Shown: positions 723 to 21,571 of the stretch, piece by piece
Numbering within the stretch: the first letter of the stretch is position 1
How the letters are laid out: every line of letters begins with the position of its first letter
NCBI GenBank assembly: GCA_029261995.1
Contig: JAJDAF010000050.1
Span: 215,152-279,151 of the forward strand
Reading direction: 5' to 3'
DNA length: 64,000 bases
Origin: Candidatus Zhuqueibacterota bacterium
Lineage (GTDB): Bacteria > Zhuqueibacterota > Zhuqueibacteria > Oceanimicrobiales > Oceanimicrobiaceae
Program-made: the position numbers and the translations under genes
Notes under the pieces: model-generated
Seen by the model: only the letters and a program-made list of their open reading frames with translations
Told to the model about the DNA's origin: nothing
Databases searched by the model: none

Positions 723-2690
723 ATGACATCTAAAGAAAACTTGTTTGGCAACATACTTAAGACGCTGAGCTGGGGCCTGCTTGCAGGACTGCTCTGGGGC
801 CTCTATGAGGCAAGCGTGCTGCTTCTGACGCAATATCGCGCATTGATTGGCCAGGACGCCAGTGGCATCTGGAATCTCTACTCAGCGGCCCTTTTGAATT
901 ATGGATTCTTCGGGCTGGTACTCGGCGGCGCCTCGTGCGCATACCTGACAGCCACGTGGTTGACCTTCAAGAAAACACGAGAAGACTTTGCTGCCGGCCG
1001 CTACTTTGTGTTGAGCATAGCCGTTCTGGTAATGGTGCTGTGGGCGGGAGTTTATGCAAACCGCTACCCGTTGGCGCGCATTCCGCTTTCACATCCCTTC
1101 TCGATTGGGGCAAGCCTGGCGATCATCGTGGCAGGGTTTGCGCTCCTTCAGATTTTGTACAGGACGGTAGGAGGGCGCAGCTCAAGTCCCCAAACGGGCC
1201 TCCTGAATTTAAAAACTGTCGGCAAAATGTTGGCGCCGCCGGTGGTGGTTCTGCTGGGTGGTCTGATTCTGCACAGCTTTAGCAGTCAAGAAACGGCCAC
1301 GGCCGAGACTGACCTGACTACCTCCGCTGGAAGCACAGTTGTTTCGCACCCAGATGCCGGAAACCTGGATGCTCCTCCGAACATCATTTTGATCACAGCC
1401 GAAACCCTGCGGGCCGACCACCTGCCGCTGTACGGTTACGACAAGCCGTTGAAGACGCCAAACATCGAAAAACTGGCCCAACAGGGTGTAACGTTCGAGA
1501 ACTATTTCACCAATTCCTCCTGGACAAGGGCATCGGTCACGTCGATCATGACCTCTTTGTTCCCGCAGCAGCACGGGGCCACGGGCCTGCACGTGACGCT
1601 GATGGACAGCGTCTTGACCCTGCCGAAAATTCTGGAGGCCCATGGTTACCACTCGGCTGCATTTCTCACCAACGTCAATTCTGTTTCAAAGGGCTTTGCG
1701 TTTTCCGAAGTCTACTATGATGAAATGATCGAAGCGTTCCGGAATCCGCTGGCGGTCTCGCCATTTTCACTCAAGCCATTCCTGGTACGGCGTCTGCTCG
1801 GAACGGAGAATCAGTTGTCTCAGGATTTCCCCTTCGTATTTCCGACGGAGTTTGTCAACGATTGGTACCTGGATGCGGCAAACGTCAATTCGTTCATCCA
1901 GAAGTGGTTGGTCACAGCTCCGGAGAAGCCGTTGTTCCTCCAGATTCACTATCTGGATCCGCACGAGCCGTACCTGCGTCACCCCTACGAGGCTGTACAA
2001 TTCAATCTGAAATCGGGGTGGACCGTTGACTCAATTGTTGAGCTTTATGACCAGGAAATCGAGTATCTCGATTCTGAGTTGGGCCGACTACAGAAAATTC
2101 TCGCAGCAGCCGGAAGACTACAAAACAGCCTGTTCATTTTCACTTCGGACCATGGCGAGGAATTTCTTGACCATGGTGGTTGGGGGCATGGCAACCACCT
2201 CTATGATGAAACCTTGAGGGTACCCCTGGTCATGCGCTTTCCGGATGGCAAATGGGCAGGTTCGCGCGTGGCCAGTCCGACCTCGAGTGTTGACCTGGCG
2301 CCGACCATTGTTGAAGCCGCCGGAGTGGATGCACCGCCAGACTTTGAAGGCCACAGCCTGACGCCGGTGATCACCGGAGCCGAGCAAGGTCATCGACTGA
2401 TCACTTCGCACCTTCTGGCGCCTTCGTTTGAAATGGCGTCTATCATGAAGGACGACATGAAGTTCATTTCCCGGACTGGACTCAATTCAGGCAAATATCT
2501 GTTCAACTTGGCGCAAGACCCAGGCGAACAGAAGAATCTGATTGAGCAGCACCCTGAGATCGCAGCCGAGCTTGAAGCCACACTTGCAATAGTCGATCAG
2601 AAGTTTAAGGCGGAGCAGCGTCAGGGCAAACAACTGAGCCTGACCGAAGAACAAAAGAAAAGATTGCGGGCGCTGGGCTACTTGAAGTAG
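723..2690 (+). CDS. membrane-anchored sulfatase-fold (alkaline phosphatase superfamily) hydrolase/transferase
   Basis: About 5 N-terminal hydrophobic helices, then NIILITAETLRADHL, SWTRASVTSIMTSLFPQQHG, HYLDPHEPY, YDQEIEYLD, FTSDHGEEFLDHGGWGHG, VDLAPTI; ends RLRALGYLK. ATG 723 preferred over GTG 696. Confidence 0.85.
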   Translation: MTSKENLFGNILKTLSWGLLAGLLWGLYEASVLLLTQYRALIGQDASGIWNLYSAALLNYGFFGLVLGGASCAYLTATWLTFKKTREDFAAGRYFVLSIAVLVMVLWAGVYANRYPLARIPLSHPFSIGASLAIIVAGFALLQILYRTVGGRSSSPQTGLLNLKTVGKMLAPPVVVLLGGLILHSFSSQETATAETDLTTSAGSTVVSHPDAGNLDAPPNIILITAETLRADHLPLYGYDKPLKTPNIEKLAQQGVTFENYFTNSSWTRASVTSIMTSLFPQQHGATGLHVTLMDSVLTLPKILEAHGYHSAAFLTNVNSVSKGFAFSEVYYDEMIEAFRNPLAVSPFSLKPFLVRRLLGTENQLSQDFPFVFPTEFVNDWYLDAANVNSFIQKWLVTAPEKPLFLQIHYLDPHEPYLRHPYEAVQFNLKSGWTVDSIVELYDQEIEYLDSELGRLQKILAAAGRLQNSLFIFTSDHGEEFLDHGGWGHGNHLYDETLRVPLVMRFPDGKWAGSRVASPTSSVDLAPTIVEAAGVDAPPDFEGHSLTPVITGAEQGHRLITSHLLAPSFEMASIMKDDMKFISRTGLNSGKYLFNLAQDPGEQKNLIEQHPEIAAELEATLAIVDQKFKAEQRQGKQLSLTEEQKKRLRALGYLK

Positions 2691-2823
2691 TCTGTAAGAC
2701 CCAACGGAACGACCGACTGGTTTTGCAGTTACCTTGCTTTGGCCTGCGGGATTGGCTGTAGCGGAAACGGTTGACACAATTTTGAGCTGCATAAGCAGTA
2801 AAGATGTTATAAAGGAGGCACGG

Positions 2824-4635
2824 ATGGAACGGAGATGGAGAACTCAATGGATGACAGCGTGCAGCGCCGCGCTTCTGCTAGCCGCAAGCCTGACGCCGCT
2901 AACAACCGTGGTTGCTCAAGGCAAACACCCCTACCCCAGAATTGGGACATTCCACTTCTTCCGCGGCCAGGTACCGCCTGATTGGCATGCCCGAATGGAC
3001 CTTGTGGATATCAACAAAACCGACCCGGATATTCCGCGGGCGATCAAACGAAAAAATCCAAAAACCGTGGTGTTTTCAACAAGCGGTTGGACGGTCTGGA
3101 ACAGCAATAATCCGATTTCTGACACGGATATCAGCTTTCCGTCCGAGTGGTTTGCTCGTCGTGCTGATGGCTCGCCAATCGAGTTCGCTGGTAAGAAATT
3201 TCTGATCAATCTTTCAAATCACTGCCCGAAAGTCGATGGCAAGCGCTACAATGAACTGCTGCCAGACGTGCTCATTGACCGCGTAGATCTAACCGCGTTT
3301 GACGGCATTGCCAGCGACTGGCTCTGGCGCAAGCCGCATAACCAAACCGACATCGATCTCGACAACAACGGCCGCAACGATTACGACGAACACGGCAACG
3401 CTTGGGTTGAAGCGGAGTGGCGTGCCGGCGTGGAAACTCTGCTGCAGATTCTGCGCGGCAAGATGCCGCCCAATCGTTACGTCCTCGTCAACTCCGGACT
3501 GTTCCACCAGTATGGTTGGAACACCACCAACGGCCTGATTCTCGAAAACTACCGTGGCGTGCGCGGTTGGAACGGTTTCGAACGCAATTACTTCGGCTGG
3601 AGCGATACTTCACTGGAGCCGCGCATGATGATTTTCGACGTCATGCCGTCGCCAAAGGACCCGCGTATCAATGGCGAGCCGAAGGATTACTACACACACA
3701 TGCGCTTCATGCTGACCATCACACTCTTGGGAGAGGGCTATTTCAGCTATTCTGATTTTGAGGCCAGGGCGCTGCACCATTTCGACAAGTACTACGATGA
3801 ATATGATGTCGAGCTTGGCTGGGACCGCACCGGGCCACAAAAGTTGACCAATGGCTGCTGGGTTCGATTTTTCGATAAAGGCGTCTCCATCACCAATCCA
3901 TCTACTTCGACGACCAGGGTCAGTGATGGCGACTTGCGTGGTTTAAACGGCTACAACGGGCCTTACTACCGTTTTCTTGGGGGTCAGGATTCGCAGGTTA
4001 ACAACGGCCAGCAGTTCGATGGCATCGAGCTTTTTGGTGGCAAATTGGACGACGGCCTGATTGTCGGGGATGGCATCATTTTGTTGACCGAGCGCAAAAC
4101 CGTCATCGCGGATATCGTGGTGGACCAGCAAAACGCCGAGACCTCGCCCGGAAGCAAAAATGCGGACCTGCAGGGCGGCTGGACGGAAACCAATGATGTT
4201 GAAGACCCCTACAGTTTTCGCCAGGCCAAACACAACGGCTTATTTGGCGTCGCCTTTGCCAGTCCTGGCAGTGGCGGCAGCAAGGCGATCTATACTCCTG
4301 AAATTGGCATCGCCGGGGAGTACGACGTTTATGAGTGGCATGGCAAGCTCGAGGGGTTCAATATGGCGACCAACGTGCCGGTCAAAATCACCATTAACGG
4401 AGATGTGAAATTTAACCAGCGCATCGACCAGTCGCGCCAGTCCGGAAGCTGGAACCATCTCGGCAAATTCAGTTTTCCGGTTGGCGCTCGTTCTCGCATC
4501 GAGCTTTCAAATGACGCCAACGGTATGGTGGTAGCGGATGCCTTCAAGCTGGTTTCCGTGACTTCAGAGCAACCCGACAGAGATGTGACGGCGCCCACAA
4601 CGCCTTCCGGAGTGCGTGTCTCGAATGGCAATTAG
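2824..4635 (+). CDS. secreted putative glycoside hydrolase (GHL15-like) with golvesin/Xly-like C-terminal beta domain
   Basis: AGGAGG RBS at about 2813 and a signal peptide (MERRWRTQWMTACSAALLLAASLTPLTTVVAQ). Motifs FDGIASD, NGLILEN, MRFMLTITLLGEGYF, YYDEYDVELG, WVRFFDKGVSITNP resemble the GHL15 family. C-terminal YTPEIGIAGEYDVYEW...IDQSRQSGSWNHLGKFSF...VVADAFKL is golvesin-like. Assigned from recalled motifs. Confidence 0.65.
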   Translation: MERRWRTQWMTACSAALLLAASLTPLTTVVAQGKHPYPRIGTFHFFRGQVPPDWHARMDLVDINKTDPDIPRAIKRKNPKTVVFSTSGWTVWNSNNPISDTDISFPSEWFARRADGSPIEFAGKKFLINLSNHCPKVDGKRYNELLPDVLIDRVDLTAFDGIASDWLWRKPHNQTDIDLDNNGRNDYDEHGNAWVEAEWRAGVETLLQILRGKMPPNRYVLVNSGLFHQYGWNTTNGLILENYRGVRGWNGFERNYFGWSDTSLEPRMMIFDVMPSPKDPRINGEPKDYYTHMRFMLTITLLGEGYFSYSDFEARALHHFDKYYDEYDVELGWDRTGPQKLTNGCWVRFFDKGVSITNPSTSTTRVSDGDLRGLNGYNGPYYRFLGGQDSQVNNGQQFDGIELFGGKLDDGLIVGDGIILLTERKTVIADIVVDQQNAETSPGSKNADLQGGWTETNDVEDPYSFRQAKHNGLFGVAFASPGSGGSKAIYTPEIGIAGEYDVYEWHGKLEGFNMATNVPVKITINGDVKFNQRIDQSRQSGSWNHLGKFSFPVGARSRIELSNDANGMVVADAFKLVSVTSEQPDRDVTAPTTPSGVRVSNGN

Positions 4636-4696
4636 TGCAATGATTGCGAGCCAGATGAAGAGAGTATTGTGAGAGATAGAAAGGATTCGATTCTGA

Positions 4697-6613
4697 ATGC
4701 AGCAAGATAATACAAGTTTTGGCGCCTGGGTGAAGGCATTTTCCCGCAGCGCACTGTGGGCTGGTGGAATTGTTGGCGGGCTGGAGGCTCTGATTGTCGT
4801 GTCTCGAATCCTCAGCAGCAATGCTGTCGAGCTGGCGCTGCTTCTGCAAATTGTGATTTTTGTAAGTTTCGCGATAGCGCTGTTTGCGGGGCTCTTGCTC
4901 ATCTTCAATCTCATCTTCCTGCCCGTGCTCTATTTGCCGCTGAAGATGGTTGTCTCTCGATTTCAGAAGATCGGGCCATCGCAATTGAGTTGGGTGCTCA
5001 ATTTTCTTACAGCGACCTTTTTCTGTTTCCTGTTCTGGGCACACTACAATTCCGGCCGCTCGCTGCTCTCTGGCAAATCACTGCTTTATTCGGGTTTGGC
5101 GTTTGTCGGTGCTTTGGTCCTGGCGGAAATCGCAGCCCGACTCATGCATGGAGCTTCTGACAAACTCAAGTTGTGGCGCAAAGGAAAGCCAAGACCTTTT
5201 GTGGTTGTCTGGCTTCTGGTTCTCGGCGTGGCGCTGTTCATGAACTCGAATGGCATGGCTGGCGTTAGAAGCGCCAAGCCGAATGTGCTCTTGCTTATCA
5301 TCGATACACTGCGGGCTGACCGGCTCGGTTGCTACGGCTATGACAAGCCCACCTCGCCATCCATCGACCGGGTGGCCAGTGAAAGCGTGCTTTTTGAACA
5401 AGCTTACGTGTCGTGGGCCTCGTCTTTGCCGTCGCATTCGTCCATCATGACCTCCATGCAGCCCTACCACCACGGCGCTTTTCCAAACGGGAAATCTCTG
5501 AACGCCAAGCTTTTGACGCTGCCGAAGATTCTGCACGAGTACGGGTATAAGAATGCGGGCTTTGTTTCGAATACACTGGTTGGCAATCAGTACAATTTTG
5601 AGCTTGGGTACGACACTTTCACCGACCTGACCAAGTTTGACTACCACGACACCAGTTGGCAAATGTGGGTACGCACACTCGATACGATTCGGTTGTTCGA
5701 CAAAATCACTGACCGTGATTTGTTCACCGATTTGGCGCTTTCGTGGATTGAAAAACATCGCCACCGACCCTTCTTTCTCTGGGGGCAATGGCTACAGCCG
5801 CATGCACCGTACGAGCCGCCGGCCAGGCATCTGGCCAAATTCGAAGAGAGTTATTCCGGAATCGCCGACGGTAGCCTCAAGCAGATTTTCGACATCCGGC
5901 AGGGTAACGTGACCTTGAGTGATTCCGACCAACAACACTATTCTGCGCTTTACGATGGCGAGGTTGCTTGGTCAGACGAGCAAATCGGCGCCGTGTATGA
6001 TAAGCTGACCGAACTCGAGTTGCTCGAGAACTCGATCGTCATTATTACTTCTGACCACGGCGAAAACATGTTGGAACACGGACTGGAATATGGCCACGCC
6101 GGGGTCAACGAATCGAGCGTGCGGATCCCTTTGCTCGTACGACTGCCGGGCGGTAAGCGGATGCAGTTGGCACACGTCGTGCAGAGCATCGACATCGCCC
6201 CGACTGTACTCGACCTTCTGGACATCCCCATGCCTGACCAGTTTCACGGCAGGAGCGTTGTCCCACTGGTCGAGGGGCAGAAGGTAGAGTGGCCGAACGA
6301 AGCGTTCAGTGTCGGGTTTTGGAAGAAGCGCAATTTTTTCGGTCTGCGCAATGGGGATTGGAAGCTGATTCTGGATGTGCGGCAGCAAAATCAGACCTGG
6401 GCGCTATACCATCTACCCACAGACCCGCACGAGCGAAAGAATCGTTACGAAACTGAGCCCGGGACGGCGACCAAGATGAAGCACGCCATGGAGATTTGGC
6501 TTGCGAACGAGTTTGAGAATCTCGATCTCGTATACAAGCCCGGCGGTTTTTTTGAAGAAGATTTTGATGAAAAGACAATTCAGCGGCTGCGAACGCTTGG
6601 ATACATCAAGTAA
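4697..6613 (+). CDS. membrane-anchored sulfatase-fold hydrolase/transferase
   Basis: About 5 N-terminal TM segments; NVLLLIIDTLRADRLGCYG, SSLPSHSSIMTS, PHAPYEPP, YDGEVAWSD, ITSDHGE, SIDIAPTVLD; ends RLRTLGYIK. Confidence 0.88.
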   Translation: MQQDNTSFGAWVKAFSRSALWAGGIVGGLEALIVVSRILSSNAVELALLLQIVIFVSFAIALFAGLLLIFNLIFLPVLYLPLKMVVSRFQKIGPSQLSWVLNFLTATFFCFLFWAHYNSGRSLLSGKSLLYSGLAFVGALVLAEIAARLMHGASDKLKLWRKGKPRPFVVVWLLVLGVALFMNSNGMAGVRSAKPNVLLLIIDTLRADRLGCYGYDKPTSPSIDRVASESVLFEQAYVSWASSLPSHSSIMTSMQPYHHGAFPNGKSLNAKLLTLPKILHEYGYKNAGFVSNTLVGNQYNFELGYDTFTDLTKFDYHDTSWQMWVRTLDTIRLFDKITDRDLFTDLALSWIEKHRHRPFFLWGQWLQPHAPYEPPARHLAKFEESYSGIADGSLKQIFDIRQGNVTLSDSDQQHYSALYDGEVAWSDEQIGAVYDKLTELELLENSIVIITSDHGENMLEHGLEYGHAGVNESSVRIPLLVRLPGGKRMQLAHVVQSIDIAPTVLDLLDIPMPDQFHGRSVVPLVEGQKVEWPNEAFSVGFWKKRNFFGLRNGDWKLILDVRQQNQTWALYHLPTDPHERKNRYETEPGTATKMKHAMEIWLANEFENLDLVYKPGGFFEEDFDEKTIQRLRTLGYIK

Positions 6614-6663
6614 TGAAAGTTGCGCCCGCGCCCGCTGAAAAATGAATTGCCTGAGGAATTAGT

Positions 6664-8466
6664 GTGAACTATCTTAGACGTATAAGTGTGAATGTTGTTT
6701 TAGCCGCGACCCTTTTAACCGCCGCCAGCTCGATGGCTCAGCCAAATGGTCTTGGCGCTGACGGCAAAACCTTTGAACAGCGCCGTGACGATTGGCAAGC
6801 CCAGGTGCCAAGTCCCAGCGGCTCCATCAGCATGGTGGACCGCCGCAACTATTTGTTCACCTGGCTTGACGCCGGCGATCTTGATGGCGTGGTCTCCGAG
6901 ACCATCGAGAATTTTACGCGCGGCTATTGGCTGAACGACATCCGGGCGCAGCACGGTTTCGCTGCCGCGCTTCTCCTGAAATACGGTTCCAAAGGACGTG
7001 GCGTGCTTGGCGCGGGAGACGAGGATAACATCACGTCCAAGTACGACGACTGGATTTCGAGCAGCGGCACGTTTGGTGATTTAAATCCGAACAAACAGGT
7101 GTTTGCGATGGTGGGCGTTTATCTTTACACTACGAATTTTGACCGCAATCTCAAATTTCCCAACTTCGGGTACCCGGTAACGCTGAACCCACCGGTGCCC
7201 GGGCATTACAAGAACCACTGGCCATCATTCAGTTACAACGGCCACAGCTACGAATACGGCGGAGGCCCTTACAACGCCCGCCAGCTTGCGAAAGACTGGC
7301 TGGAGTGGGTGATGGATGGTCAGTATGTCCGCAAGCGGTCGCCGCGCGGTAATCGCGAGTTCGATTCCATCGTGTATGCCCGCGCTTACCCCGCGGCCAT
7401 GGCGATCCTGGCTGATCTGGCAGACGATCCCAAGCTGGCGCGCAAAGCGAAAATGTGCGCGGATTTGGCCCATCTCGACGCGGTGCTCGATTTTTCCGCC
7501 AACGCCTGGGGCGGCGCCATGGGGCGCAACGACTACCGGAAGAATTCTCGCTCGCCAATTTATCCTTTTCACCATTTTTGGGGAATGGGAGACAATCTTG
7601 ACGGTGACGAAGAAAAATGGAATGTGACCGCAAATTACTACCTCGACTACCGGGTGCCCGACGTTGCCGTGGATGCCGGTGTGCTGGAGGATGAGCCGGA
7701 CGACTATTGGCATTTCCACCAGGAGTACAACGAAGGCTATCTCAATGGAGAAGGCAAGGGCAAGTGGAATTGGGTGACAAAGTTCTACAATCTCGGCTCA
7801 AATGTCGGTCAGCCGCGCAATGGCTGGCAGCTTAGCGTCAAGGGCAGAGGACGGACCGGTTTTATCAGACTTTGGGTAAATGAGAGAGCCACCGAGCCCG
7901 ACGACAACCAGGAAACAAACTACATTGGCAGCAAGGGCAATCAGTTTCGCAACGCGTTGTTTGCGAACATCGGCAGCGGACCAAAACTTTGGGAAACTAC
8001 CACCGACGCAAGCTGGGAAATTGTCGATAAGGACGGAATCTGGAGTTTTCGCAAGCTGGGAAGAGTTATGGTCGCCGTGGGTATCGGCGCCTCCACCGCC
8101 TCGGTTGAGGTTGCCATTTCCGGTGTGGATTACCCGGACTGGAATGCTTTCAAGCAGGCCATTAAACAGAACGCGCTGCTGACCGCGGACTCCTATACGA
8201 CCTCCCGGGGCGCCGTAATTGGTAAGAAAGACTACTGTGGACTCAACGAGCCTGGCGACATCGACTTCCCGTTTCCGCGCATTCAAACCGTGGACCACCG
8301 CGGCAATTCGATTGTGAGCTGGCAGAACAATGTCATGACCGTTGCCCGGCATGGAAAGAAAATCGTTTACAACTTCAACAACTGGACTTACTCGGAGGAT
8401 GACTCCGAAGGGGATTTTGATGCGCCGCAGGTGCCGGTGGGCGTCAAGGTGCGGAGCGCGGACTAA
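6664..8466 (+). CDS. secreted hypothetical protein (600 aa)
   Basis: GAGGA RBS, GTG start, signal peptide (MNYLRRISVNVVLAATLLTAASSMAQ). Trp/Tyr/Asp-rich; helical middle (NREFDSIVYARAY...GGAMGRNDY) and beta-rich C-terminal half. No family recognised with confidence. Confidence 0.75.
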   Translation: MNYLRRISVNVVLAATLLTAASSMAQPNGLGADGKTFEQRRDDWQAQVPSPSGSISMVDRRNYLFTWLDAGDLDGVVSETIENFTRGYWLNDIRAQHGFAAALLLKYGSKGRGVLGAGDEDNITSKYDDWISSSGTFGDLNPNKQVFAMVGVYLYTTNFDRNLKFPNFGYPVTLNPPVPGHYKNHWPSFSYNGHSYEYGGGPYNARQLAKDWLEWVMDGQYVRKRSPRGNREFDSIVYARAYPAAMAILADLADDPKLARKAKMCADLAHLDAVLDFSANAWGGAMGRNDYRKNSRSPIYPFHHFWGMGDNLDGDEEKWNVTANYYLDYRVPDVAVDAGVLEDEPDDYWHFHQEYNEGYLNGEGKGKWNWVTKFYNLGSNVGQPRNGWQLSVKGRGRTGFIRLWVNERATEPDDNQETNYIGSKGNQFRNALFANIGSGPKLWETTTDASWEIVDKDGIWSFRKLGRVMVAVGIGASTASVEVAISGVDYPDWNAFKQAIKQNALLTADSYTTSRGAVIGKKDYCGLNEPGDIDFPFPRIQTVDHRGNSIVSWQNNVMTVARHGKKIVYNFNNWTYSEDDSEGDFDAPQVPVGVKVRSAD

Positions 8467-8568
8467 CTTGAACCGCAGATCGAATTCAGACTCGATGCCG
8501 ACGTGGTTCGACCGACAGAGTCCGGATGAAAACTCAACGACATCTTATCAAGATATTCAGGAACTTCA

Positions 8569-10713
8569 ATGAAACGACCACTTTCATCTTTTCTGGGGAC
8601 AGCCACGCTGTTTGGCGTGTGCGCCGCGCTCAGCCTGTTCTTGTCAGAATGGATTCTTGGCTCCTTCTACGCTGCAATCAATTATCGCACATTTCTGTTC
8701 TACCTTGCCCTTTATCTGCCGGCCGGTGCGGTCGGCGGTGCAGTGCTTGGGCTGTTCTTGAAGCTCTTCTCAAGTGTGCTAAGCTCCCGCTGGATAGGCG
8801 TAAATCGTCCATCCTTCTTGCCGGCCGCGGTGATGTTTTCGTTTTTCTACATCTACGGTTTCTACTACATCAATGAAAAACTGACTGCCCGCGTTGGCGC
8901 ACTGGCTCCCTTGAGTCTCGCCGCGGATCTGGCGTTTCTGTTGCTGTCTTTCCTGGTATTTCGCCTGGTTGTGGCGCTACCTGAACGAAAAGGTAGCGCA
9001 GTCCTGGGCTTTCTTGAAGTCGGTTTCTTGCCGCTGATTCTTCTTGTTGGAGTCAATTTGCGCTTTTTTATCTGGCAGCCGCCGCACACCCAAATACCCG
9101 AATTGGTCTTTGGCACAATTGCGTTTGGCCTGGCGGGTCTGGCGGGCGCCGCTTTGGTCTGGCTTCATGCAAAGATCTTGACCGCTTCAGCATCCACGGG
9201 TGCGCGATTCGCCAGTGTTGCGGTAATGGCAGCAATTGTGTTTGCCATTCTTGTTTGGAGCGGCACGCCATCGACCGCCAGTTTCGACCGCACTGACGAT
9301 GAGTTTTTGGCGCAGGAAGCCGTGCAAAAGCCAAAGAACATCATCTGGATTGTCACCGACACGGCACGCCGTGACCATGTTTCGGTGTACGGCGGCCAGC
9401 GACAGACAACCCCGAGCCTTGAGCAATTTGCACAGGATGCCCTGGTTTTTGATAACGCCATCTCGGCGGCGCCCTGGACTCTGCCTTCGCACGCCTCAAT
9501 GTTCACGGGCATGTTTCCTTCGAAACACGGCGCACATTTTGTTGGTGACGCCATGTTCTCGACACCGCTGGTGCCGGGCAATCTGACGATCGGTGAAATC
9601 CTTTCGGCGCACGGCTACAACACCGCTGGCATCGCAGCGAACAATGCCGGATTGTCGCGACAGCTTGGATGCCATCAGGGATTTCAGTACTATTTTGATG
9701 GCCGCCCGCTTGTCTTCAGTATGTTCTGGGGCAAGGTGCTGCTCCAGCTTTCGGATGATTTTCGCATCGACGAGTTGTGGGTGAATGAGGTCTGCCTGGC
9801 AACAGAAATGGAACCCATCGTCAACAACTGGCTCGATGACAATGCTGATGACGGACCCTTCTTCCTGTTCGTGAATTTGATGGAGCCGCACGGCGGCATC
9901 GCCTTTGTGCCCGAGCCCTATGACTCCCTGTACGGCTTCGATCGCCAACGCCAGCAAGAGGTCTTCAAAGACTTCGATGCAGACAAAGTAGTGTTTTACC
10001 AGGCGGAGGTGACGGACGAGCACCGGGCATTTTGGAATGGCTACGTTCAGCGGAAGATTACTTTCATGGATGCCTATCTCGGCCGTCTGTTCGCCAGGTT
10101 AAAAGAGAAGGGACTCTATGATGACAGCATGGTCATCGTAAATTCCGACCACGGCGAGCTTTTTGGCGAACACAACTCATTCGGCCATAACACGGATTTG
10201 TACAATGAGTTGATTCGAGTGCCGTTGATGGTGAAGTACCCGCAGGCCGCCAAAACCGGCCGTGATGCAAAACTGGTGCAGACAGTTGACCTCATGCCGG
10301 AAATTCTGGCCCAGCTAGGCATCGAGATCCCCGCTAATGTTCAGGGCCAGCCGATTGACCAGGCGAACCATCCGGTGATTGCCGAGCTTTTTCAGCAACA
10401 ACACAATGCGCATGCCAAACGCAGTCCCGGCAGATACTACCGTGACCTGCGAGCGATCTTTGGCAACGTTGCGGGCGATTCACTGAAATACATCTGGGCT
10501 TCAAATGACAAGGCCGAACTCTTTGACATGGCAAACGACCCGGATGAGCTAACCGACGTTCTGCAGCAGAGGCCGCTGGCGGCTGACTCCCTGCGTGCGA
10601 GACTTGGCCGATGGGCCAGTAGCTTCAAACCGATGGAGACCAAGGGCCAGACTCGGAATATCGACAAGAAGGAATTGGAGAAGCGTTTGCGCTCACTGGG
10701 GTATATCAAGTAG
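8569..10713 (+). CDS. membrane-anchored sulfatase-fold hydrolase/transferase
   Basis: About 7 N-terminal TM segments; NIIWIVTDTARRDHVSVYG, APWTLPSHASMFTG, NLMEPHG, NSDHGELFGEH..FGH, TVDLMPEIL; ends RLRSLGYIK. Confidence 0.88.
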   Translation: MKRPLSSFLGTATLFGVCAALSLFLSEWILGSFYAAINYRTFLFYLALYLPAGAVGGAVLGLFLKLFSSVLSSRWIGVNRPSFLPAAVMFSFFYIYGFYYINEKLTARVGALAPLSLAADLAFLLLSFLVFRLVVALPERKGSAVLGFLEVGFLPLILLVGVNLRFFIWQPPHTQIPELVFGTIAFGLAGLAGAALVWLHAKILTASASTGARFASVAVMAAIVFAILVWSGTPSTASFDRTDDEFLAQEAVQKPKNIIWIVTDTARRDHVSVYGGQRQTTPSLEQFAQDALVFDNAISAAPWTLPSHASMFTGMFPSKHGAHFVGDAMFSTPLVPGNLTIGEILSAHGYNTAGIAANNAGLSRQLGCHQGFQYYFDGRPLVFSMFWGKVLLQLSDDFRIDELWVNEVCLATEMEPIVNNWLDDNADDGPFFLFVNLMEPHGGIAFVPEPYDSLYGFDRQRQQEVFKDFDADKVVFYQAEVTDEHRAFWNGYVQRKITFMDAYLGRLFARLKEKGLYDDSMVIVNSDHGELFGEHNSFGHNTDLYNELIRVPLMVKYPQAAKTGRDAKLVQTVDLMPEILAQLGIEIPANVQGQPIDQANHPVIAELFQQQHNAHAKRSPGRYYRDLRAIFGNVAGDSLKYIWASNDKAELFDMANDPDELTDVLQQRPLAADSLRARLGRWASSFKPMETKGQTRNIDKKELEKRLRSLGYIK

Positions 10714-10758
10714 GTCGTTTCTCACCGCCGTTGATTGCAGGTTTCGCCAGCAAAATTT

Positions 10759-13326
10759 ATGGACGAATCAGGTCTCACCACAAAACTCAAACACGCCATC
10801 CATCTCGGCTGTTGGCTAGGTTTGATCGGCGGCGTAATACGCGTCGTCATTCTTCTTTTGCAAAACAATTACTTCACGCAGGAAATAGCCACGTTCGGCG
10901 TAAACTATCTGCAAGTTTCGGTCAACCATTTTCTCCTACTCGGTTTGGCATTCGGAATTCTGTTAGGGATCTGCTGGAGGTTGTTTCGTAGCCTGGAGGG
11001 ATTCCTGCTTGCCGGATTGCTTGTTGCGTTACCAATTCTGCCCGTCGCCAATTTTCTAAACAGGAATATCTTCCCCGGCCGTTTTCACCCAATCAGCCTG
11101 GCAGGCAACGCCGCCATATTGGTGATTATGATTGCCCTGGCAATCTGGCTGTTTCTACGCTGGTTCAAGCCGGTCCGTTTTCTGCACCGACTCTACAGCA
11201 AATGGACATTTGCTGCGGCATTCGTGCTCGTTGGATGTGTAAATCTCTTCTACCTGCTGCAAATGCCTGAAGCCCGTTTGCAGGCTGCATCCCCTGAACC
11301 TGACGGTTTGGCCGGGTTGTTCAGAACGGTGTCCGCATCAACTTCTGGCGGAGTGAAGACCGGTTTTTCCATGTCTGACATAAAGAATCACTTGACGAAA
11401 ACAGCAGAAGACAGACTCCCGTTGCTGGATGAACGCATCGCTCGCAAGGATACCGCGGACATCATGGCCGAGGCCGACGCCTCAATTGCCCGGACCTTTG
11501 ATCTTCTAAACATCGCACACACATTTCCGGGTGAGATTGAGTGGCGCCAGAATCCGACCAAAGACCGGGAATGGCTGCTTGCCCTCAATCGGATGGACTG
11601 GATTTGGAGCGTGGCCGTCGCTTACCGAATGACGCAGGATTCCCAATATGCGCTCGCCTTTGACCGCATCATGCGCAGTTGGTTCGAGCAGAATCCGGTG
11701 CCGCGTTGGAAAAACGAGCGCGACAACGTCTGGCGCCTGATCGAATCCAGCGCCCGCATGACCGACAGTTGGATTGAGGCATTTTTTATTTTCTATAATT
11801 GCGATCAAGTCAGCGAGGAAGTCAAGTGGCGCATGCTGGCCTCGTTTCATGACCACGCGCAATTCCTGGCACACTTTCGTTCTCCCAGGAGGAATCATCT
11901 GCTGCAGGAGACGTATGGCTTGCTAGCGGTCGCTGCCGCATTTCCTGAGTTCAAAATGTCAGAAACCTGGATCGAAATCGCCAGACTACGGCTTGACCGG
12001 GCCATGCGCGAGGACGTTTATCCGGACGGCGGTTACACGGAGGGGTCGATTTACTACCACCGCTTCGCCATTCGCATTCTGCAGGAGATTACCGATTTCG
12101 CGGCGGCGTACGATGTTCGCCTTTCCGACTTCTTCTACCAGCAGCTCGAGAAGATGTACAGTTTTCTCATGCACACTTCCCGTCCCGACGGCGTCATGCC
12201 GCAGATGAATGACGGCTTCCACGCCAAGAATCTCCGCATCATGTTTGACCGGCCGGCCGAGTTTTTTTCTCGGCAGGACTTCGAGTACTTTGCGAGCGAC
12301 GGCTACTCGGGTGTGCGGCCTGAATCACCGTCGGTAGCATTTCCCTATTCTGGCATTTACGTCATGCGCAGCGGGTGGGCGCGCCAGGCGCGCTACATGA
12401 TTACAGATGCCGGGCCGTTCGGTTCATCGCACGGCCACGAAGACAAGCTGAGTTTTGAGCTGTTCGCGTTTGGCAGGCCATTTATCGTGGAAAGCGGCAC
12501 TTACACGTACGTGCGAAACAAGTGGCGGAAGTACTTCACCAGTTCATTCGCGCATAACACGATTGTTGTGGACGGCCGTAGCCAGATTCGCTTTCCGGAT
12601 CAGGAGCTTTGGGTGAATGCGCCGCCCGAAACCCTGGCCAATCAATGGATTTCGACGGACGCATTCGACTACCTTGAGGCGCACTACGATGGCGGCTACG
12701 GCAGCGTTAAGGAAGATGTACTCAGCGGAATTGTCCACACCCGGCGCTGGCTGTTTGTAAAACCGGACTACTGGATCATTTGGGACGTTGTCGAGGGAGA
12801 GGGGGAGCATAAGTTGGAACAACTATTTCACTTCTGGCATGAAGCGAACGTCGAGATTCTGGGCGAGAACGAGATTCGGGCCAGCTACTCGGGTGGACCA
12901 GCCATGTCCGTCCATGTTCTTGGCGAGAAACAGGGCCGCTTGACTGCCGTGAGGGGACAAGATAGTCCGGTGCAGGGCTGGGTTTCTTCGGAGTACGGCA
13001 AGAAAATGCCGGCATCCAGCGTTCGCGTCACCCGCCAGGGCGTTCTGCCGATTTCCTTTGTCACTATTCTGGCGCCATCGGAACTTGGACAACCGGATGA
13101 ACGTGTAGAATCTGTTCAAGTCACGGCCGGCGGGCAGTCTACTCCCCAAACAGAAGCAATTGCGGTTAAGCTCACATTTGAGAATCAAGTCGATCACATT
13201 TTGATTGCGCCAAATCTTCGAGAAGAAAAATCCTTCGGGGAGTTTGCAACCGGAGCAGAGTTGTTCGCGGTTCGGGAGAAAGGCGCAACTGCTACTCAAC
13301 TGTTCAGTCGGGAGGATGTGAAATGA
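10759..13326 (+). CDS. membrane-anchored heparinase II/III family (polysaccharide lyase-like) protein
   Basis: About 4-5 N-terminal TM helices, then LNRMDW, NHLLQETYGL, YPDGGYTEGSIYYH, HGHEDKLSFEL, HNTIVVDG, HTRRWLFV, typical of Hepar_II_III_N plus Hepar_II_III. ATG 10759 preferred over TTG 10735. Confidence 0.85.
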   Translation: MDESGLTTKLKHAIHLGCWLGLIGGVIRVVILLLQNNYFTQEIATFGVNYLQVSVNHFLLLGLAFGILLGICWRLFRSLEGFLLAGLLVALPILPVANFLNRNIFPGRFHPISLAGNAAILVIMIALAIWLFLRWFKPVRFLHRLYSKWTFAAAFVLVGCVNLFYLLQMPEARLQAASPEPDGLAGLFRTVSASTSGGVKTGFSMSDIKNHLTKTAEDRLPLLDERIARKDTADIMAEADASIARTFDLLNIAHTFPGEIEWRQNPTKDREWLLALNRMDWIWSVAVAYRMTQDSQYALAFDRIMRSWFEQNPVPRWKNERDNVWRLIESSARMTDSWIEAFFIFYNCDQVSEEVKWRMLASFHDHAQFLAHFRSPRRNHLLQETYGLLAVAAAFPEFKMSETWIEIARLRLDRAMREDVYPDGGYTEGSIYYHRFAIRILQEITDFAAAYDVRLSDFFYQQLEKMYSFLMHTSRPDGVMPQMNDGFHAKNLRIMFDRPAEFFSRQDFEYFASDGYSGVRPESPSVAFPYSGIYVMRSGWARQARYMITDAGPFGSSHGHEDKLSFELFAFGRPFIVESGTYTYVRNKWRKYFTSSFAHNTIVVDGRSQIRFPDQELWVNAPPETLANQWISTDAFDYLEAHYDGGYGSVKEDVLSGIVHTRRWLFVKPDYWIIWDVVEGEGEHKLEQLFHFWHEANVEILGENEIRASYSGGPAMSVHVLGEKQGRLTAVRGQDSPVQGWVSSEYGKKMPASSVRVTRQGVLPISFVTILAPSELGQPDERVESVQVTAGGQSTPQTEAIAVKLTFENQVDHILIAPNLREEKSFGEFATGAELFAVREKGATATQLFSREDVK

Positions 13327-13715
13327 GGAAGCAATCCAGTCTCTTCACAATTGTTGGTGCTTTTGTTCTTGTCTTTTCTTTCAGTTCAACCGTTCAGAGT
13401 CAAGTTGCTTTGTTGGAGGATGGCCAGAACGCTCTTGGCCTGGGCGGGAGTTTGTACTACGACTTTGACGGTGCGGGAGGGTTTTCCGGGACTTTTTCTG
13501 CGCTGCTGCTTGATCGTCTGGATTTCAGTGTGACGCAAGGCAGGTTATATCCAAATTCAGAAGATTTCGTCGATTCGGTGTTGTCCCAGAGTTTCGATGT
13601 CCTGATCGGGACGCAAAACGACGACCGCAAACTCGTCTTTCTTGAACTTGGTGCGTCTCGTACCGAGGGCGACTTCAGCGGCTCGGTCTCGGCGGGTATG
13701 GTAATATCTTTCTGA
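13323..13715 (+). CDS. small secreted hypothetical protein, possibly outer-membrane beta-strand protein
   Basis: ATGA overlap with the upstream stop; signal peptide; alternating hydrophobic beta-strand pattern; terminal Phe (GMVISF). Confidence 0.55.
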   Translation: MRKQSSLFTIVGAFVLVFSFSSTVQSQVALLEDGQNALGLGGSLYYDFDGAGGFSGTFSALLLDRLDFSVTQGRLYPNSEDFVDSVLSQSFDVLIGTQNDDRKLVFLELGASRTEGDFSGSVSAGMVISF

Positions 13716-13992: not shown

Positions 13993-16224
13993 ATGGCTCA
14001 ATTCAAAAAGGACGGTGAATCGTTGATCAATCCGGAGAGTAGAATTAGACTCAAGCTTGGAGTCATTGTACCCTTCTTCCTAGTCTTCCTGCTTATCCTC
14101 GGATCCCAGCCGGCGCATGCCTACATCGGACCTGGCGCAGGCTTTGCTTTTCTGACCTCGTTCCTGATGTTGTTTGCCAGTTTTTTCATGGCGTTTTTTA
14201 CCCTGCTGACCTGGCCCATGAGGGTGTTCGTTCGCTTCTTCAAACGCCGCAAAGCGTTCGTACAAGCCAAAACGGACCGCGTCGTCATTCTGGGCCTCGA
14301 CGGCCTTGAGCCGACGATTACGGAACGGTTGCTCAAGCAAGGCAAGTTGCCGAACCTGCTGAGGTTGAAGGAGCAGGGGTCCTATTCGCATTTGCAAACC
14401 ACCTATCCCGCGATTTCGCCAGTGGCATGGTCAGCGTTTTCGACAGGCGTGAATCCGGGCGGGCACAACATTTTTGATTTCCTGTCTCGACACAAGCAGA
14501 CCTACATGCCTGAGCTTTCCTCCTCCAAAGTCGGCACACCAAGCCGGAAGCTATCCTTTGGGCAATATGAGATTCCGCTGGGCAAACCGATTGTTCGTTT
14601 TCTGCGTCGCAGCAAGAGTTTCTGGAAAATCTTGGGCGACCACGGCATTTTTAGCCATGTCCTGCGGGTTCCGATTACATTTCCACCCGAGAAATTTAAC
14701 GGCGCCATGCTATCCGCCATGTGTGCGCCTGATTTGTGGGGAACTCAAGGCACCTTTTCTTTTTTCACCACCGACGATTCGGTGGACCCCATCAAGGAAG
14801 GCGGAGACACACAGATTGTGACACGCAACGGCGACCGCGTCGAAGGCAATATCAAGGGGCCTGAGAATTCCATTAAGAAGAATCACGGCCAGATGCTGCT
14901 GCCATTTGTGGCCAAAATTTTGGGTGAAGACGAAGCCGAGCTTATCATCGGCAAAGAGAGGATTCATCTCAAAAAGAAAAAATACACGGAGTGGATCGAG
15001 CTTAAATTCAAAGCAGGCTTGGGCATCAAAGTGCAGGGTATCGCGCGGTTTTACCTGCTCGACACCAAACCGCATTTCCGTCTTTACATGACGCCCATAA
15101 ATATCGATCCTGAGACGCCGGCGTTGCCGATTTCGTACCCCTATTTCTACTCGGTCTACCTGGCCAAGCTGCACGGCAAGTTTGCAACTCTCGGCCTGGC
15201 CGAAGACACCTGGTCGCTCAACGAAGGCATCCTGGACGAGCAGGCGTTTCTGGAGCAGGCTTATCTGATTCATGACGAACGCGAAAAGCAGTTTTTCCAC
15301 GCTCTTGATAAAACCAAGAAGGGCTTATGCGCGGTCGTTGTTGATGCGACGGACCGAATTCAGCACATGTTTTTCCGAACGCTGGAGGATGACCATCCGG
15401 CGAACAAGGGCAAAGAAACGGAGAAATACAAGAACGTCATCGAAGACATGTACATTAAGATGGACGGCCTGGTGGGCCGAACCATGGAAAAAGTCAACAA
15501 AGACGACCTCTTTATCGTGCTCTCCGACCACGGCTTCAAGTCTTTCAAACGCGGCATCAATCTGAACGTTTGGCTGAAGGAGAATGGCTATCTCACCCTC
15601 AAAGATGGGGTTGAAAAAACAGGCGAGTTTTTTCAGGGCGTAGACTGGTCGAAAACAAAGGCCTACGCTTTTGGGCTTGCGGGTATCTACCTGAATGTGA
15701 AGGGCCGGGAGAAGCACGGCACTGTCGAACCAGGTGATGAGTACCAGAAGCTCAAGAGAGAGCTGATTGAGAAGCTTTCCGGCTTGATAGACCCGAAAAA
15801 CGGTAATGTCGCGATCACCGAAATGTATGATGGTCAAAAAATTTACAGCGGTCCCTACGTTAATGACGGCCCAGATTTGATCAGTGGTTACAACATCGGT
15901 TACCGCATCTCGTGGAACGGAGCCACCGGCGTTATTGATGACACTCTTTTTGATGACAACACGAAAGCCTGGAGTGGCGACCACTGCATCGATCCCAAGC
16001 TGGTTCCGGGTGTGATTTTCAGCAATATGAAAATAGCCGCGGCAAAGCCGGGACTTGTCGACTTGGCGCCAACGGTTCTGGATATGTTTGGAGTCGCCAA
16101 GCCGGGTTACATGACGGGGGCAAACATCTTTGAGACGACGCGTAGTGGCGTAAACGGGCGTGCTCACAAGATCGGCAAAGTCGAAACGGTTGAGATTACG
16201 GAGGTCGCGAACCCCAATGAGTAG
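13993..16224 (+). CDS. alkaline phosphatase superfamily protein (type I phosphodiesterase/nucleotide pyrophosphatase-like), membrane anchored
   Basis: VVILGLDG, PAISPVAWSAFSTGVNPGGHNIFDF, DRIQHMFF, VLSDHGF, WSGDHC, VDLAPTVL. N-terminus: signal-like segment ..PAHA|YIGPGAG followed by a TM helix and a basic stretch. Confidence 0.85.
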   Translation: MAQFKKDGESLINPESRIRLKLGVIVPFFLVFLLILGSQPAHAYIGPGAGFAFLTSFLMLFASFFMAFFTLLTWPMRVFVRFFKRRKAFVQAKTDRVVILGLDGLEPTITERLLKQGKLPNLLRLKEQGSYSHLQTTYPAISPVAWSAFSTGVNPGGHNIFDFLSRHKQTYMPELSSSKVGTPSRKLSFGQYEIPLGKPIVRFLRRSKSFWKILGDHGIFSHVLRVPITFPPEKFNGAMLSAMCAPDLWGTQGTFSFFTTDDSVDPIKEGGDTQIVTRNGDRVEGNIKGPENSIKKNHGQMLLPFVAKILGEDEAELIIGKERIHLKKKKYTEWIELKFKAGLGIKVQGIARFYLLDTKPHFRLYMTPINIDPETPALPISYPYFYSVYLAKLHGKFATLGLAEDTWSLNEGILDEQAFLEQAYLIHDEREKQFFHALDKTKKGLCAVVVDATDRIQHMFFRTLEDDHPANKGKETEKYKNVIEDMYIKMDGLVGRTMEKVNKDDLFIVLSDHGFKSFKRGINLNVWLKENGYLTLKDGVEKTGEFFQGVDWSKTKAYAFGLAGIYLNVKGREKHGTVEPGDEYQKLKRELIEKLSGLIDPKNGNVAITEMYDGQKIYSGPYVNDGPDLISGYNIGYRISWNGATGVIDDTLFDDNTKAWSGDHCIDPKLVPGVIFSNMKIAAAKPGLVDLAPTVLDMFGVAKPGYMTGANIFETTRSGVNGRAHKIGKVETVEITEVANPNE

Positions 16225-18199: not shown

Positions 18200-18320
18200 G
18201 GCGCTATTCGCAGGTCAGGGCATCTCAGGGTGGCTGAAGAAGAACATTGAGCTTGTGGAATTATTCATCGAGCTAGTGCAAATAGAACAAACCAGGGTTA
18301 GTCGATAAAGGAGTAAATTG

Positions 18321-18506
18321 ATGGCAAAGGTAAAACTTGAGAACGAACTATTTGACCGCGTCAAGAAATTTGCGGAGGTGGCTGGCTATTCGTCGGCTGA
18401 GGAGTTCATCGCTCACATTCTGGAGAAGGAGCTTTCATCGGTAGACGAAACAGATAGCGACGATGAGATCAAAAAGCGTTTGCAGGGTCTCGGTTATTTG
18501 TCCTAG
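18321..18506 (+). CDS. 61-aa hypothetical protein, CopG/ribbon-helix-helix-like N-terminus plus RLxxLGY C-terminal motif
   Basis: AAGGAG RBS at 18308-18313. Sequence MAKVKLENELFDRVKKFAEVAGYSSAEEFIAHILEKEL...DDEIKKRLQGLGYLS. Confidence 0.8.
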   Translation: MAKVKLENELFDRVKKFAEVAGYSSAEEFIAHILEKELSSVDETDSDDEIKKRLQGLGYLS

Positions 18507-18541
18507 TTTCTAAGAACCTAAGGAATGAAAAGCATCAGAAT

Positions 18542-21512: not shown

Positions 21513-21571
21513 CAGAAAACAGAAAAGAAAAATGAATTCAAATTCTACCCAGAACAGGAGGTAATAGTTAG

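Follow-up and report, generated by a model that had tools for sequence, protein, structure and literature searches.

We have analysed a 64,000-nucleotide stretch of DNA from Candidatus Zhuqueibacterota bacterium (contig JAJDAF010000050.1, positions 215,152 to 279,151 of the forward strand; hereafter the window) that encodes three proteins, S1, S2 and S3, which databases would label as sulfatases. As judged by sequence alignments, the three proteins are unable to form formylglycine (FGly) and, despite their label, are not FGly sulfatases; they are part of a very large, uncharacterised branch of PF00884 with a putative Thr nucleophile that is found in many bacterial phyla and in haloarchaea. S1-S3 are the membrane-anchored and, by prediction, outward-facing form of this large, unstudied branch misannotated as sulfatases. 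Around the three genes is a complete Wzx/Wzy polysaccharide locus, which also encodes synthesis of 3′-phosphoadenosine 5′-phosphosulfate (PAPS). Our leading explanation, which we hold only tentatively, is that S1-S3 are FGly-independent, metal-dependent group transferases that act on an exported or lipid-linked glycan by a ping-pong mechanism with a covalent Thr/Ser intermediate, drawing the transferred group from a membrane-embedded donor.

The genes and their putative nucleophile motifs are as follows (aa, amino acids; TM, transmembrane helices):

723-2690, + strand: S1, 655 aa; 5-TM anchor (aa 1-188) followed by a Thr-type sulfatase-fold domain; PF00884
1521-1538, + strand: S1 motif W-T-R-A-S-V, replacing C/S-x-P-x-R; Thr268 codon at 1524-1526
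4697-6613, + strand: S2, 638 aa; about 5 TM followed by a Ser-type sulfatase-fold domain; PF00884
5420-5437, + strand: S2 motif S-S-L-P-S-H; Ser243 codon at 5423-5425
8569-10713, + strand: S3, 714 aa; 7-TM anchor (aa 1-230) followed by a Thr-type sulfatase-fold domain; PF00884
9475-9492, + strand: S3 motif W-T-L-P-S-H; Thr304 codon at 9478-9480

All three proteins match the Pfam PF00884 Sulfatase model across its full profile (E 1.6e-50, 4.9e-50 and 8e-49 for S1, S2 and S3, respectively) and also match the SGSH_C C-terminal subdomain. For S1 an alternative upstream start is possible, with GTG at 696.

The nucleophile motif and the active site

In phmmer alignments with solved sulfatases, the S3 segment 'aapwTLPSHasmftg' aligns over 'ypvSSPARgmlmtg' of 2qzu and 'cpsSTPARaglltg' of 7oz8, which places Thr304 at the position of the Ser that is the FGly precursor and His308 at that of the motif Arg. 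In MAFFT family alignments, W-T-R-A-S-V of S1 and S-S-L-P-S-H of S2 fall in the same columns as W-T-L-P-S-H of S3. The original prediction, made from the DNA letters alone, had proposed that Thr or Ser stands in place of (C/S)xPxR and that the motif Arg is missing, and both sets of alignments bear it out: the predicted nucleophile is Thr in S1 and S3 and Ser in S2, and the Arg is replaced by His in S2 and S3 and by Val in S1. While the motifs quoted there were right, the numbers given with them (723, 4697 and 8569) are gene starts and not motif positions. The absence of a maturase also stands: no domain of an FGly-generating enzyme (FGE) or anaerobic sulfatase-maturating enzyme (anSME) was detected in the sizeable open reading frames (ORFs) of the 64-kb window, nor in the 18 kb upstream on the same contig (82 kb in total).

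The residues that bind sulfate in FGly sulfatases are replaced as well. Here we used family alignments of 55 S3-type and 56 S1-type sequences (111 together). The G-K-x-x-H element is replaced by G-Y-x-T-x-x-x-A-A-N-N in S3, T-N-V-N in S1 and S-N-T-L in S2, with an Asn kept at this site in 48 of 55 sequences, and the Lys located 13 residues past the Asp of DHG is changed to His in S1-S3 (His in 54/55 and 55/56 homologs). That S1-S3 are ordinary type I sulfatases whose maturase, an FGE or anSME, is encoded elsewhere in the genome is barely credible: while the Pfam Sulfatase and arylsulfatase-type NCBIfam matches and the Ser of S2 would fit, there is no Cys nucleophile, none of the three has the motif Arg, S1 also lacks the motif Pro, the Lys/His sulfate-binding residues are replaced, no maturase was found in the 82 kb, and the scores of S1-S3 against the arylsulfatase-type NCBIfam models are 140-181 bits as compared to cut-offs of 433-900.

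The putative catalytic residues are instead those of lipid head-group transferases. In MCR-1, Zn1 is bound by Glu246, Thr285, Asp465 and His466, the second site is formed by His395 and His478, and Glu468 orients His478 (PMC5216409). In our alignments, MCR-1 E246/T285/H395/D465-H466-G-E468/H478 corresponds one-to-one to D264/T304/H441/D527-H528-G-E530/H540 of S3, whose full set reads D264, W-T304-L-P-S-H308, N358, H441, D527-H528-G-E530 and H540. Equivalents are found in S1 (Glu227 as the predicted metal ligand, in AETLR; W-T268-R-A-S-V; H414; D476-H477-G-E479; H489) and in S2 (D203; S-S243-L-P-S-H; H369; D453-H454-G-E; H467). The T-x-x-S motif is common to EptA/MCR-1 and the S1-S3 family, as is the distance of nine residues between D-H-G-E and the His after it (D+13). 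Glu227 of S1, in A-E-T-L-R-A-D, adjoins G-E-T-S-R-A-E of Escherichia coli EptA in the alignment, giving a predicted Glu ligand as in EptA, and BLASTP aligns residues 253-320 of S3 with EptA 232-297 at 39% identity across the nucleophile, with T-L-P-S against T-A-V-S. In the S3 structure model Thr304 opens the helix 304-313 after the strand 292-298, the usual position of the nucleophile in the superfamily.

More than 100 homologs retain these EptA/MCR-1 positions, both the catalytic and the metal-binding ones, with almost no variation. This bears on the idea that S1-S3 lack catalytic activity and serve as scaffolds or sensors in the assembly of envelope polysaccharide, like PbgA/YejM, which we regard as very improbable: while PbgA/YejM has the same architecture and its NCBIfam model gives weak matches, all seven catalytic/metal positions are kept in all three paralogs and near-invariant in the family, so that a pseudo-enzyme is not expected.

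Membrane domain, fold and family

The claim that each protein carries an N-terminal domain of 5-7 TM held up. The S3 model has seven TM helices (residues 5-34, 39-66, 83-105, 114-135, 144-167, 176-203 and 210-230), S1 has five hydrophobic segments, and S2 has about five, counting one 69-residue hydrophobic stretch as two. Positive-inside counts show alternating, strongly positive loops in all three proteins, with an N-terminus on the inside; the acidic linker after the last helix and the catalytic domain behind it come to lie on the other side, so that each catalytic domain is predicted to be on the periplasmic face of the inner membrane rather than in the cytoplasm. The N-terminal membrane domains of S1, S2 and S3 have no match in Pfam, including the EptA-type PF08019, and the S3 membrane domain folded alone (predicted local distance difference test, pLDDT, 84.5) has no PDB match at E<=0.001, with template-modelling scores <=0.24; those of S1 and S2 were compared by hidden Markov model only. 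The membrane domain is thus not that of EptA or LtaS. It is conserved among S3 orthologs, where Glu27 of TM1 is invariant and the sequence of an outer loop, YGFYYINEKLTPGVG, is maintained, which suggests a role beyond anchoring.

As for the catalytic domain, a profile of the S3 family matches solved FGly sulfatases and phosphonate monoester hydrolases (PMHs) with 200-226 bits (E 1e-58 to 6.5e-66), among them 4upi (6.5e-66), 7oz8, 2vqr, 2w8s and choline sulfatases. With the AlphaFold model of S3 (pLDDT 92.6, predicted template-modelling score, pTM, 0.91), Foldseek retrieved 4upl (2.5e-20), PMHs and choline sulfatase at E 1e-18 to 2.5e-20 and target template-modelling scores of 0.58-0.70; there was no structure of EptA, LtaS or a nucleotide pyrophosphatase/phosphodiesterase (NPP) among the top 50 matches. 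Run on E. coli proteins, the S3-family profile gave 73 bits for AslA, 68 bits for EptA and no match for OpgB, and the S1-family profile gave 89, 58 and 15.9 bits, respectively (E 0.23 for OpgB). Against the NCBIfam models S1-S3 score 15-41 bits for EptA/CptA/MCR (cut-offs 404-1250) and 21-41 bits for LtaS (cut-off 970), and fall far under the cut-offs for choline sulfatase and YejM. S3 reaches 48.9 bits against Pfam Phosphodiest (PF01663; threshold 23) as compared to 167 bits against PF00884. Taken together, the profile, fold and NCBIfam scores define the catalytic domain as a separate branch beside the arylsulfatase/PMH/choline-sulfatase group. The proteins had originally been called LtaS/EptA-style; this description fits their architecture and predicted catalytic residues, which are of EptA type, but not their family membership, since by profile and fold they are nearest to FGly sulfatases and PMHs rather than to EptA, LtaS or OpgB.

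The putative Thr/Ser nucleophile is a trait of the whole family, neither chance nor decay. In the S3-type alignment the nucleophile column holds T in 53 and S in 2 of the 55 sequences, followed by P at +2 (54), S at +3 (55) and H at +4 (54); in the S1-type alignment it holds T in 55 and S in 1 of the 56, with P/A at +2, S/A at +3 and a hydrophobic residue (V/I/F/M) at +4. Not one of the 111 sequences has Cys at the nucleophile position or Arg at +4. These column patterns divide the family into two subtypes, W-T-x-P-S-H (S3, and S2 with Ser) and W-T-R/K-P/A-S-hydrophobic (S1).

Hundreds of homologs were retrieved with the S3 and S1 queries. The pattern WT[LIV]PSHAS gave at least 600 matches (one genome per species), at least 582 of them confirmed relatives, spanning Planctomycetota, Acidobacteriota, Chloroflexota, Myxococcota, Gemmatimonadota, Calditrichota/KSB1 and archaea. 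For one haloarchaeal member alone, 2822 of the scored candidates are relatives at E<=1e-20. The Thr-type proteins come in several forms: cytoplasmic without a signal sequence, lipoproteins or proteins exported by the twin-arginine translocation (Tat) pathway, and polytopic membrane proteins. Homologs of about 1000 aa (P0140, P0142, P0153, P0159, P0160 and others) join the Thr-type domain to PF03706 (YbhN/MprF, the TM domain of lysyl-phosphatidylglycerol synthase), a fusion that hints at a lipid substrate. Literature searches returned nothing relevant for the motif string TLPSH and nothing for sulfatase-like proteins combined with sulfated exopolysaccharide.

The proposed reaction and its setting in the polysaccharide locus

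In the transfer reaction that we tentatively propose, a metal held by D/E, Thr, Asp and His would activate the Thr/Ser, which would then attack a tetrahedral anionic group (X), either a phosphodiester head group or a sulfate ester, of a membrane-embedded donor held by the polytopic domain, yielding a covalent Thr-O-X enzyme. The two extra His residues (H441 and H540 in S3) would stabilise the leaving group and the intermediate. The acceptor of X would be a hydroxyl group of the exopolysaccharide made by the Wzx/Wzy system, attached to its lipid carrier or already part of the growing polymer. Each of the three paralogs (relatives have four) would be responsible for a different position or sugar. 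The secreted glycan-binding/hydrolase-like proteins encoded between them and the anchored heparinase II/III-like protein would likewise act on this exported polymer. Active site and topology both make a phospho-type head group from a membrane phospholipid appear more likely than sulfate as the group that is moved. To our knowledge, every characterised enzyme of the alkaline-phosphatase (AP) superfamily with a polytopic anchor and an outward Thr/Ser domain (EptA/B/C, MCR, LtaS, OpgB, BcsG, GacH) is a head-group transferase with a membrane phospholipid donor, and the conserved polytopic domain seems hard to explain other than by transfer from a membrane donor.

Several points weigh against this proposal. 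FGly sulfatases and PMHs score about three times as many bits with the catalytic domain as does any known transferase, and neither EptA nor LtaS has a related membrane domain. Thr-nucleophile enzymes of the AP superfamily also include plain hydrolases (NPPs and alkaline phosphatase), and many Thr-type family members are soluble lipoproteins or cytoplasmic proteins, which are unable to use a membrane donor in the same way. The active-site comparison, geometry included, is drawn from sequence alignments. Finally, if S1-S3 move phospho groups, a gap is left by the PAPS that is made in a locus with no canonical sulfotransferase.

We consider it unlikely that S1-S3 are hydrolases, that is, outward-facing phosphodiesterases/phosphatases or FGly-independent sulfatases that trim the polysaccharide or its lipid carrier, for instance to take off a transient group or to set the polymer free. 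The T-x-P-x-H motif is the nucleophile type of NPP phosphodiesterases, and S3 scores above the Phosphodiest threshold; the nearest solved relatives are all hydrolases; glycoside-hydrolase-like and lyase-like proteins are encoded nearby; and many family members are simple lipoproteins or Tat-exported. However, a conserved polytopic domain with invariant residues would be needless for a soluble substrate, family members are found in loci for biosynthesis, not catabolism, in both bacteria and haloarchaea, and the FGly gem-diol chemistry behind efficient hydrolysis by sulfatases is absent.

The order of the locus was read from the window together with the 18 kb upstream. Its left end holds carB followed by PMT_2, Wzy_C, GT4, Wzx, AsnB-like, FrhB-like, a 611-aa cytoplasmic protein, GT4, GT1, GH39-like and a methyltransferase. 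The middle part runs through S1, a GHL15/Golvesin_C protein, S2, a secreted 600-aa protein, S3, a heparinase II/III-like protein and a 130-aa ORF, and continues with NPPa, NPPb, a 61-aa protein, a 273-aa membrane protein, a methyltransferase, sat and cysC. The right part holds GT4, GT2, FemAB-like, a DUF3473 deacetylase and PMT_2, and giant surface proteins sorted by the type IX secretion system (T9SS) mark the boundary. The features next to S1-S3 are:

2734-4635, + strand: X1, secreted/anchored GHL15-like + Golvesin_C protein between S1 and S2; conserved in relatives
6664-8466, + strand: X2, secreted 600-aa protein between S2 and S3; no family match
10735-13326, + strand: heparinase II/III-like protein with a 4-5 TM anchor; polysaccharide lyase or C5-epimerase-type fold
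13323-13715: 130-aa ORF overlapping the stop of the heparinase-like gene; no family match
13993-19363, + strand: NPPa-NPPb-61 aa-273 aa four-gene module; conserved
20349-22153, + strand: sat (ATP sulfurylase) and cysC (adenosine 5′-phosphosulfate (APS) kinase; 21572-22153); PAPS synthesis

X1 and X2 are unrelated over most of their length and have similar C-terminal tails, ...DVTAPTTPSGVRVSNGN and ...DFDAPQVPVGVKVRSAD. The heparinase II/III-like gene comes after the sulfatase-like genes in all close relatives; in animals, folds of this type act as C5-epimerases on uronates, and epimerised uronic acids may therefore be present in the polymer. The 130-aa ORF was not found in relatives by tblastn, and the 611-aa cytoplasmic protein upstream (2735-4570 of L084, in the numbering of that fetched locus) has no family match. 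Directly downstream of the polysaccharide locus, positions 28250-63998 of the window encode five giant surface proteins (1478 to >3411 aa) with GDSL lipase, Big_1/invasin, FG-GAP, CBM96, cadherin-like and ASH/HYDIN-like Ig repeats and T9SS C-terminal sorting domains.

In KSB1/Calditrichota relatives the gene order GHL15, sulfatase-like, heparinase-like, PF01663, methyltransferase, sat is kept, with four sulfatase-like paralogs, all of them with Thr. Two haloarchaeal Thr-type proteins (loci L089 and L090) are encoded in glycan-assembly clusters with a second sulfatase-like gene beside each: these are cytoplasmic W-T-L-P-S-H proteins accompanied by Wzy_C, Wzx, GT2/GT4, a methyltransferase and a DUF3473 deacetylase, a gene set that resembles the bacterial locus.

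No Pfam sulfotransferase (PF00685, PF13469 and relatives) was detected from carB to the T9SS adhesins, even at lenient thresholds for the unassigned proteins; the models do work, as two sulfotransferases were detected in the Chloroflexia locus L045. In the four-gene module NPPa, a PF01663 protein, has an invariant A-Y-I-G-P-G-A-G-F-A-F-L membrane hairpin and shows 50-58% identity across distant lineages; since the hairpin is followed by RVFVRFFKRRK, the catalytic domain is predicted to face, probably, the cytoplasm. NPPb is a PF01663 protein predicted to be exported, and the PF01663 proteins of Chloroflexia have no signal sequence.

How closely the Thr-type, PF01663 and PAPS genes are linked can be read from two scans of fetched loci. 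In the scan centred on Thr-type genes, 4 of the 57 loci of at least 12 kb had PAPS genes, every one of them also with PF01663 genes; expressed by Thr-type locus, PAPS genes were present in 4/5 with PF01663 and 0/52 without. In the scan centred on NPPa, the 61-aa and 273-aa genes were present in 40/42 and 37/42 metagenome loci of at least 12 kb, and across 80 loci we counted Thr-type genes in 10, PAPS genes in 7 and both in 2. The individual loci vary. The Terriglobia locus L027 holds a PHP phosphatase, cysD, cysN, cysC, a membrane Thr-type gene, a mini version of it, NPPa, NPPb and the 61-aa and 273-aa genes, with no sulfotransferase in that locus. Chloroflexia loci L045 and L060 hold Wzx, a sulfotransferase, PF01663, cysC, a second PF01663 gene, a soluble Thr-type gene (W-T-L-P-V-H), GT2 and a second sulfotransferase, and the metagenome locus L095 holds a membrane Thr-type gene, cysC, sat, a PF01663 gene and NPPa. 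In L027 the membrane Thr-type gene (4281-6381) lies in two overlapping frames, reflecting a frameshift or an assembly error, and the mini version (6549-7400) is a 283-aa cytoplasmic Thr-type protein that keeps W-T-S-P-S-H, E-T-H and D-H-G-E...G-H.

These counts indicate that the PAPS connection is real, well above chance and made with two non-orthologous ATP sulfurylases, but that it runs chiefly via the PF01663 module. The original prediction had placed the proteins beside PAPS synthesis: sat-cysC is indeed in the locus, while its support for sulfo-transfer by S1-S3 themselves is weak, given the 0/52 without PF01663. The predicted location of the S1-S3 catalytic domains outside the cytoplasm, where PAPS is unavailable, also weighs against their use of PAPS. 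A single sulfation module made up of PAPS, Thr-type, two PF01663, 61-aa and 273-aa genes was considered and weakened by the NPPa scan, in which the four-gene PF01663 unit stands alone.

A further link between these genes is a shared C-terminal tail. S1 ends in RLRALGYLK, S2 in RLRTLGYIK and S3 in RLRSLGYIK, following the pattern (K/R)RLRxLGY(I/L)K, and an RLxxLGY tail is present on almost all Thr-type family members, cytoplasmic haloarchaeal ones included. The free-standing 61-aa module protein ends in a tail of this type as well, ...DDEIKKRLQGLGYLS, as do the APS kinases of six independent module loci (L045, L060, L095, L107, L141 and L158/160), which carry an acidic extension of about 50 residues ending in RLKALGYI (pattern RL(K/R)xLGY(I/L)); the CysC of the window has no such extension. 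The fetched loci together contain 8352 ORFs of 50 aa or more, and only 191 of these have RLxxLGY-type ends: 120 Thr-type sulfatase-like proteins, 57 61-aa proteins, 6 CysC, 3 PF01663 proteins, 2 CysD and 3 others. The tail, found on exported and cytoplasmic proteins alike, may be a docking or oligomerisation element for AP-superfamily domains, and its occurrence on APS kinase would be the most direct hint that some enzyme of this set receives PAPS.

It is therefore worth weighing whether S1-S3 are the outer arm of a sulfation pathway, moving sulfate via a sulfo-threonine from a PAPS-derived, outward-flipped carrier onto the exported polysaccharide; we think this doubtful. Consistent with it are the presence of sat-cysC in a locus with no Pfam sulfotransferase from carB to the T9SS adhesins, the recurrence of Thr-type, PF01663 and PAPS genes in Terriglobia (cysDN-cysC, PHP phosphatase, no sulfotransferase), Chloroflexia and L095, the RLxxLGY tail that APS kinases of six such loci share with S1-S3, and the sulfatases that are the nearest solved relatives; the three to four paralogs would suit position-specific sulfation. 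FGly-to-Ser arylsulfatase mutants reportedly trap a stable sulfo-enzyme (Recksiek et al. 1998). There is also a precedent in Agl30/Agl31, sulfatase-fold proteins that are glycan sulfotransferases by deletion and heterologous expression (PMC11980604). Against this stand the predicted outward location of the catalytic domains, with no PAPS there, the loss from S1-S3 of all the basic sulfate-binding residues of sulfatases, the restriction of PAPS genes near Thr-type genes to loci with PF01663 and the 5/7 PF01663 modules with PAPS genes that have no sulfatase-like gene. Agl30/31, moreover, are placed on the cytoplasmic face and are at most putative relatives of S1-S3. We know of no lipid-linked sulfate donor, which counts against the sulfation arm as well.

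A Golgi-like route of polymer sulfation in bacteria strikes us as quite improbable: the cytoplasm-facing NPPa would load sulfate from PAPS onto a lipid carrier, the carrier would be flipped, and S1-S3 would place the sulfate via a sulfo-threonine at different positions of the polysaccharide, with the tailed APS kinase docking on NPPa in related loci. If true, this would be a new sulfotransferase class and the first lipid-linked sulfate donor.

Comparison with known systems

In haloarchaea and many bacterial phyla, thousands of genes that carry the label 'sulfatase' or 'arylsulfatase A-like' would be unable to form FGly, and such mislabelled Thr-type genes inflate the sulfatase counts of genomes and metagenomes and hide an unstudied enzyme family. 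Combining a sulfatase/PMH scaffold with the residues of lipid head-group transferases, the family looks like a natural nucleophile switch within the AP superfamily. The locus, complete for polysaccharide synthesis and equipped with three membrane-anchored paralogs and PAPS synthesis but with no canonical sulfotransferase, is a good test bed for how exported polysaccharides gain anionic groups and for whether sulfation can occur outside the cytoplasm. The conserved Thr/His set and the RLxxLGY tail are direct targets for mutagenesis; Agl30/31, the only experimental precedent, come without a proposed catalytic residue.

Agl30 (VNG1056C) and Agl31 (VNG1057C) of Halobacterium salinarum are sulfatase-fold N-glycan sulfotransferases (Zaretsky et al., mBio 2025, PMC11980604); glycan sulfation depends on them, and their expression in Haloferax volcanii is enough for a foreign glycan to be sulfated. 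Agl31 is cytosolic, and the two enzymes, cytosolic or single-span, are placed at a stage before the lipid-linked glycan is flipped; the same paper names no donor, motif or mechanism (PMC11980604). Compared by description, Agl30/31 and S1-S3 both have a sulfatase-like fold and belong to a glycan-assembly cluster, with two Agl enzymes for two positions; they differ in that Agl30/31 are placed on the cytoplasmic face, where there is PAPS, whereas S1-S3 are predicted to face outward. The haloarchaeal Thr-type members occupy clusters similar to that of Agl30/31, and among the 120 matches listed of the 2822 haloarchaeal homologs there is no Halobacterium-named protein. Haloferax Agl7 (HVO_2046), considered as a possible sulfatase-like protein, was dropped as a lead, as the papers confirm its role in sulfation and not its family, and a literature search gave no paper that connects it with sulfatases.

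By profile and fold, type I FGly sulfatases and PMHs (4upi, 4upl, 2vqr, 2w8s, 7oz8, 6g5z) are nearest to S1-S3, sharing with them the two-domain core with an SGSH_C-type subdomain, the D-x-x-R-x-D first strand, P-H and S-D-H-G-E. Unlike FGly sulfatases, S1-S3 have a putative Thr/Ser nucleophile, no C/S-x-P-x-R, a 5-7 TM N-terminus and the RLxxLGY tail. With NPPs (PF01663), S3 shares a Thr nucleophile in T-x-P-x-H and an Asn after the next strand, while the C-terminal subdomain and the DHGE...H segment of S1-S3 are of the sulfatase/EptA type.

EptA and OpgB are far more distant from the S1-S3 catalytic domain (68 and 16 bits as compared to 200-226 bits), the C-terminal subdomain of which is sulfatase-like. 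In overall layout, however, EptA/MCR-1, LtaS, OpgB, BcsG and GacH share with S1-S3 the polytopic N-terminal anchor and the outward AP-superfamily domain, and the arrangement of LtaS and OpgB, five TM followed by an extracytoplasmic catalytic domain, is the one predicted for S1-S3 (about 5, about 5 and 7 TM).

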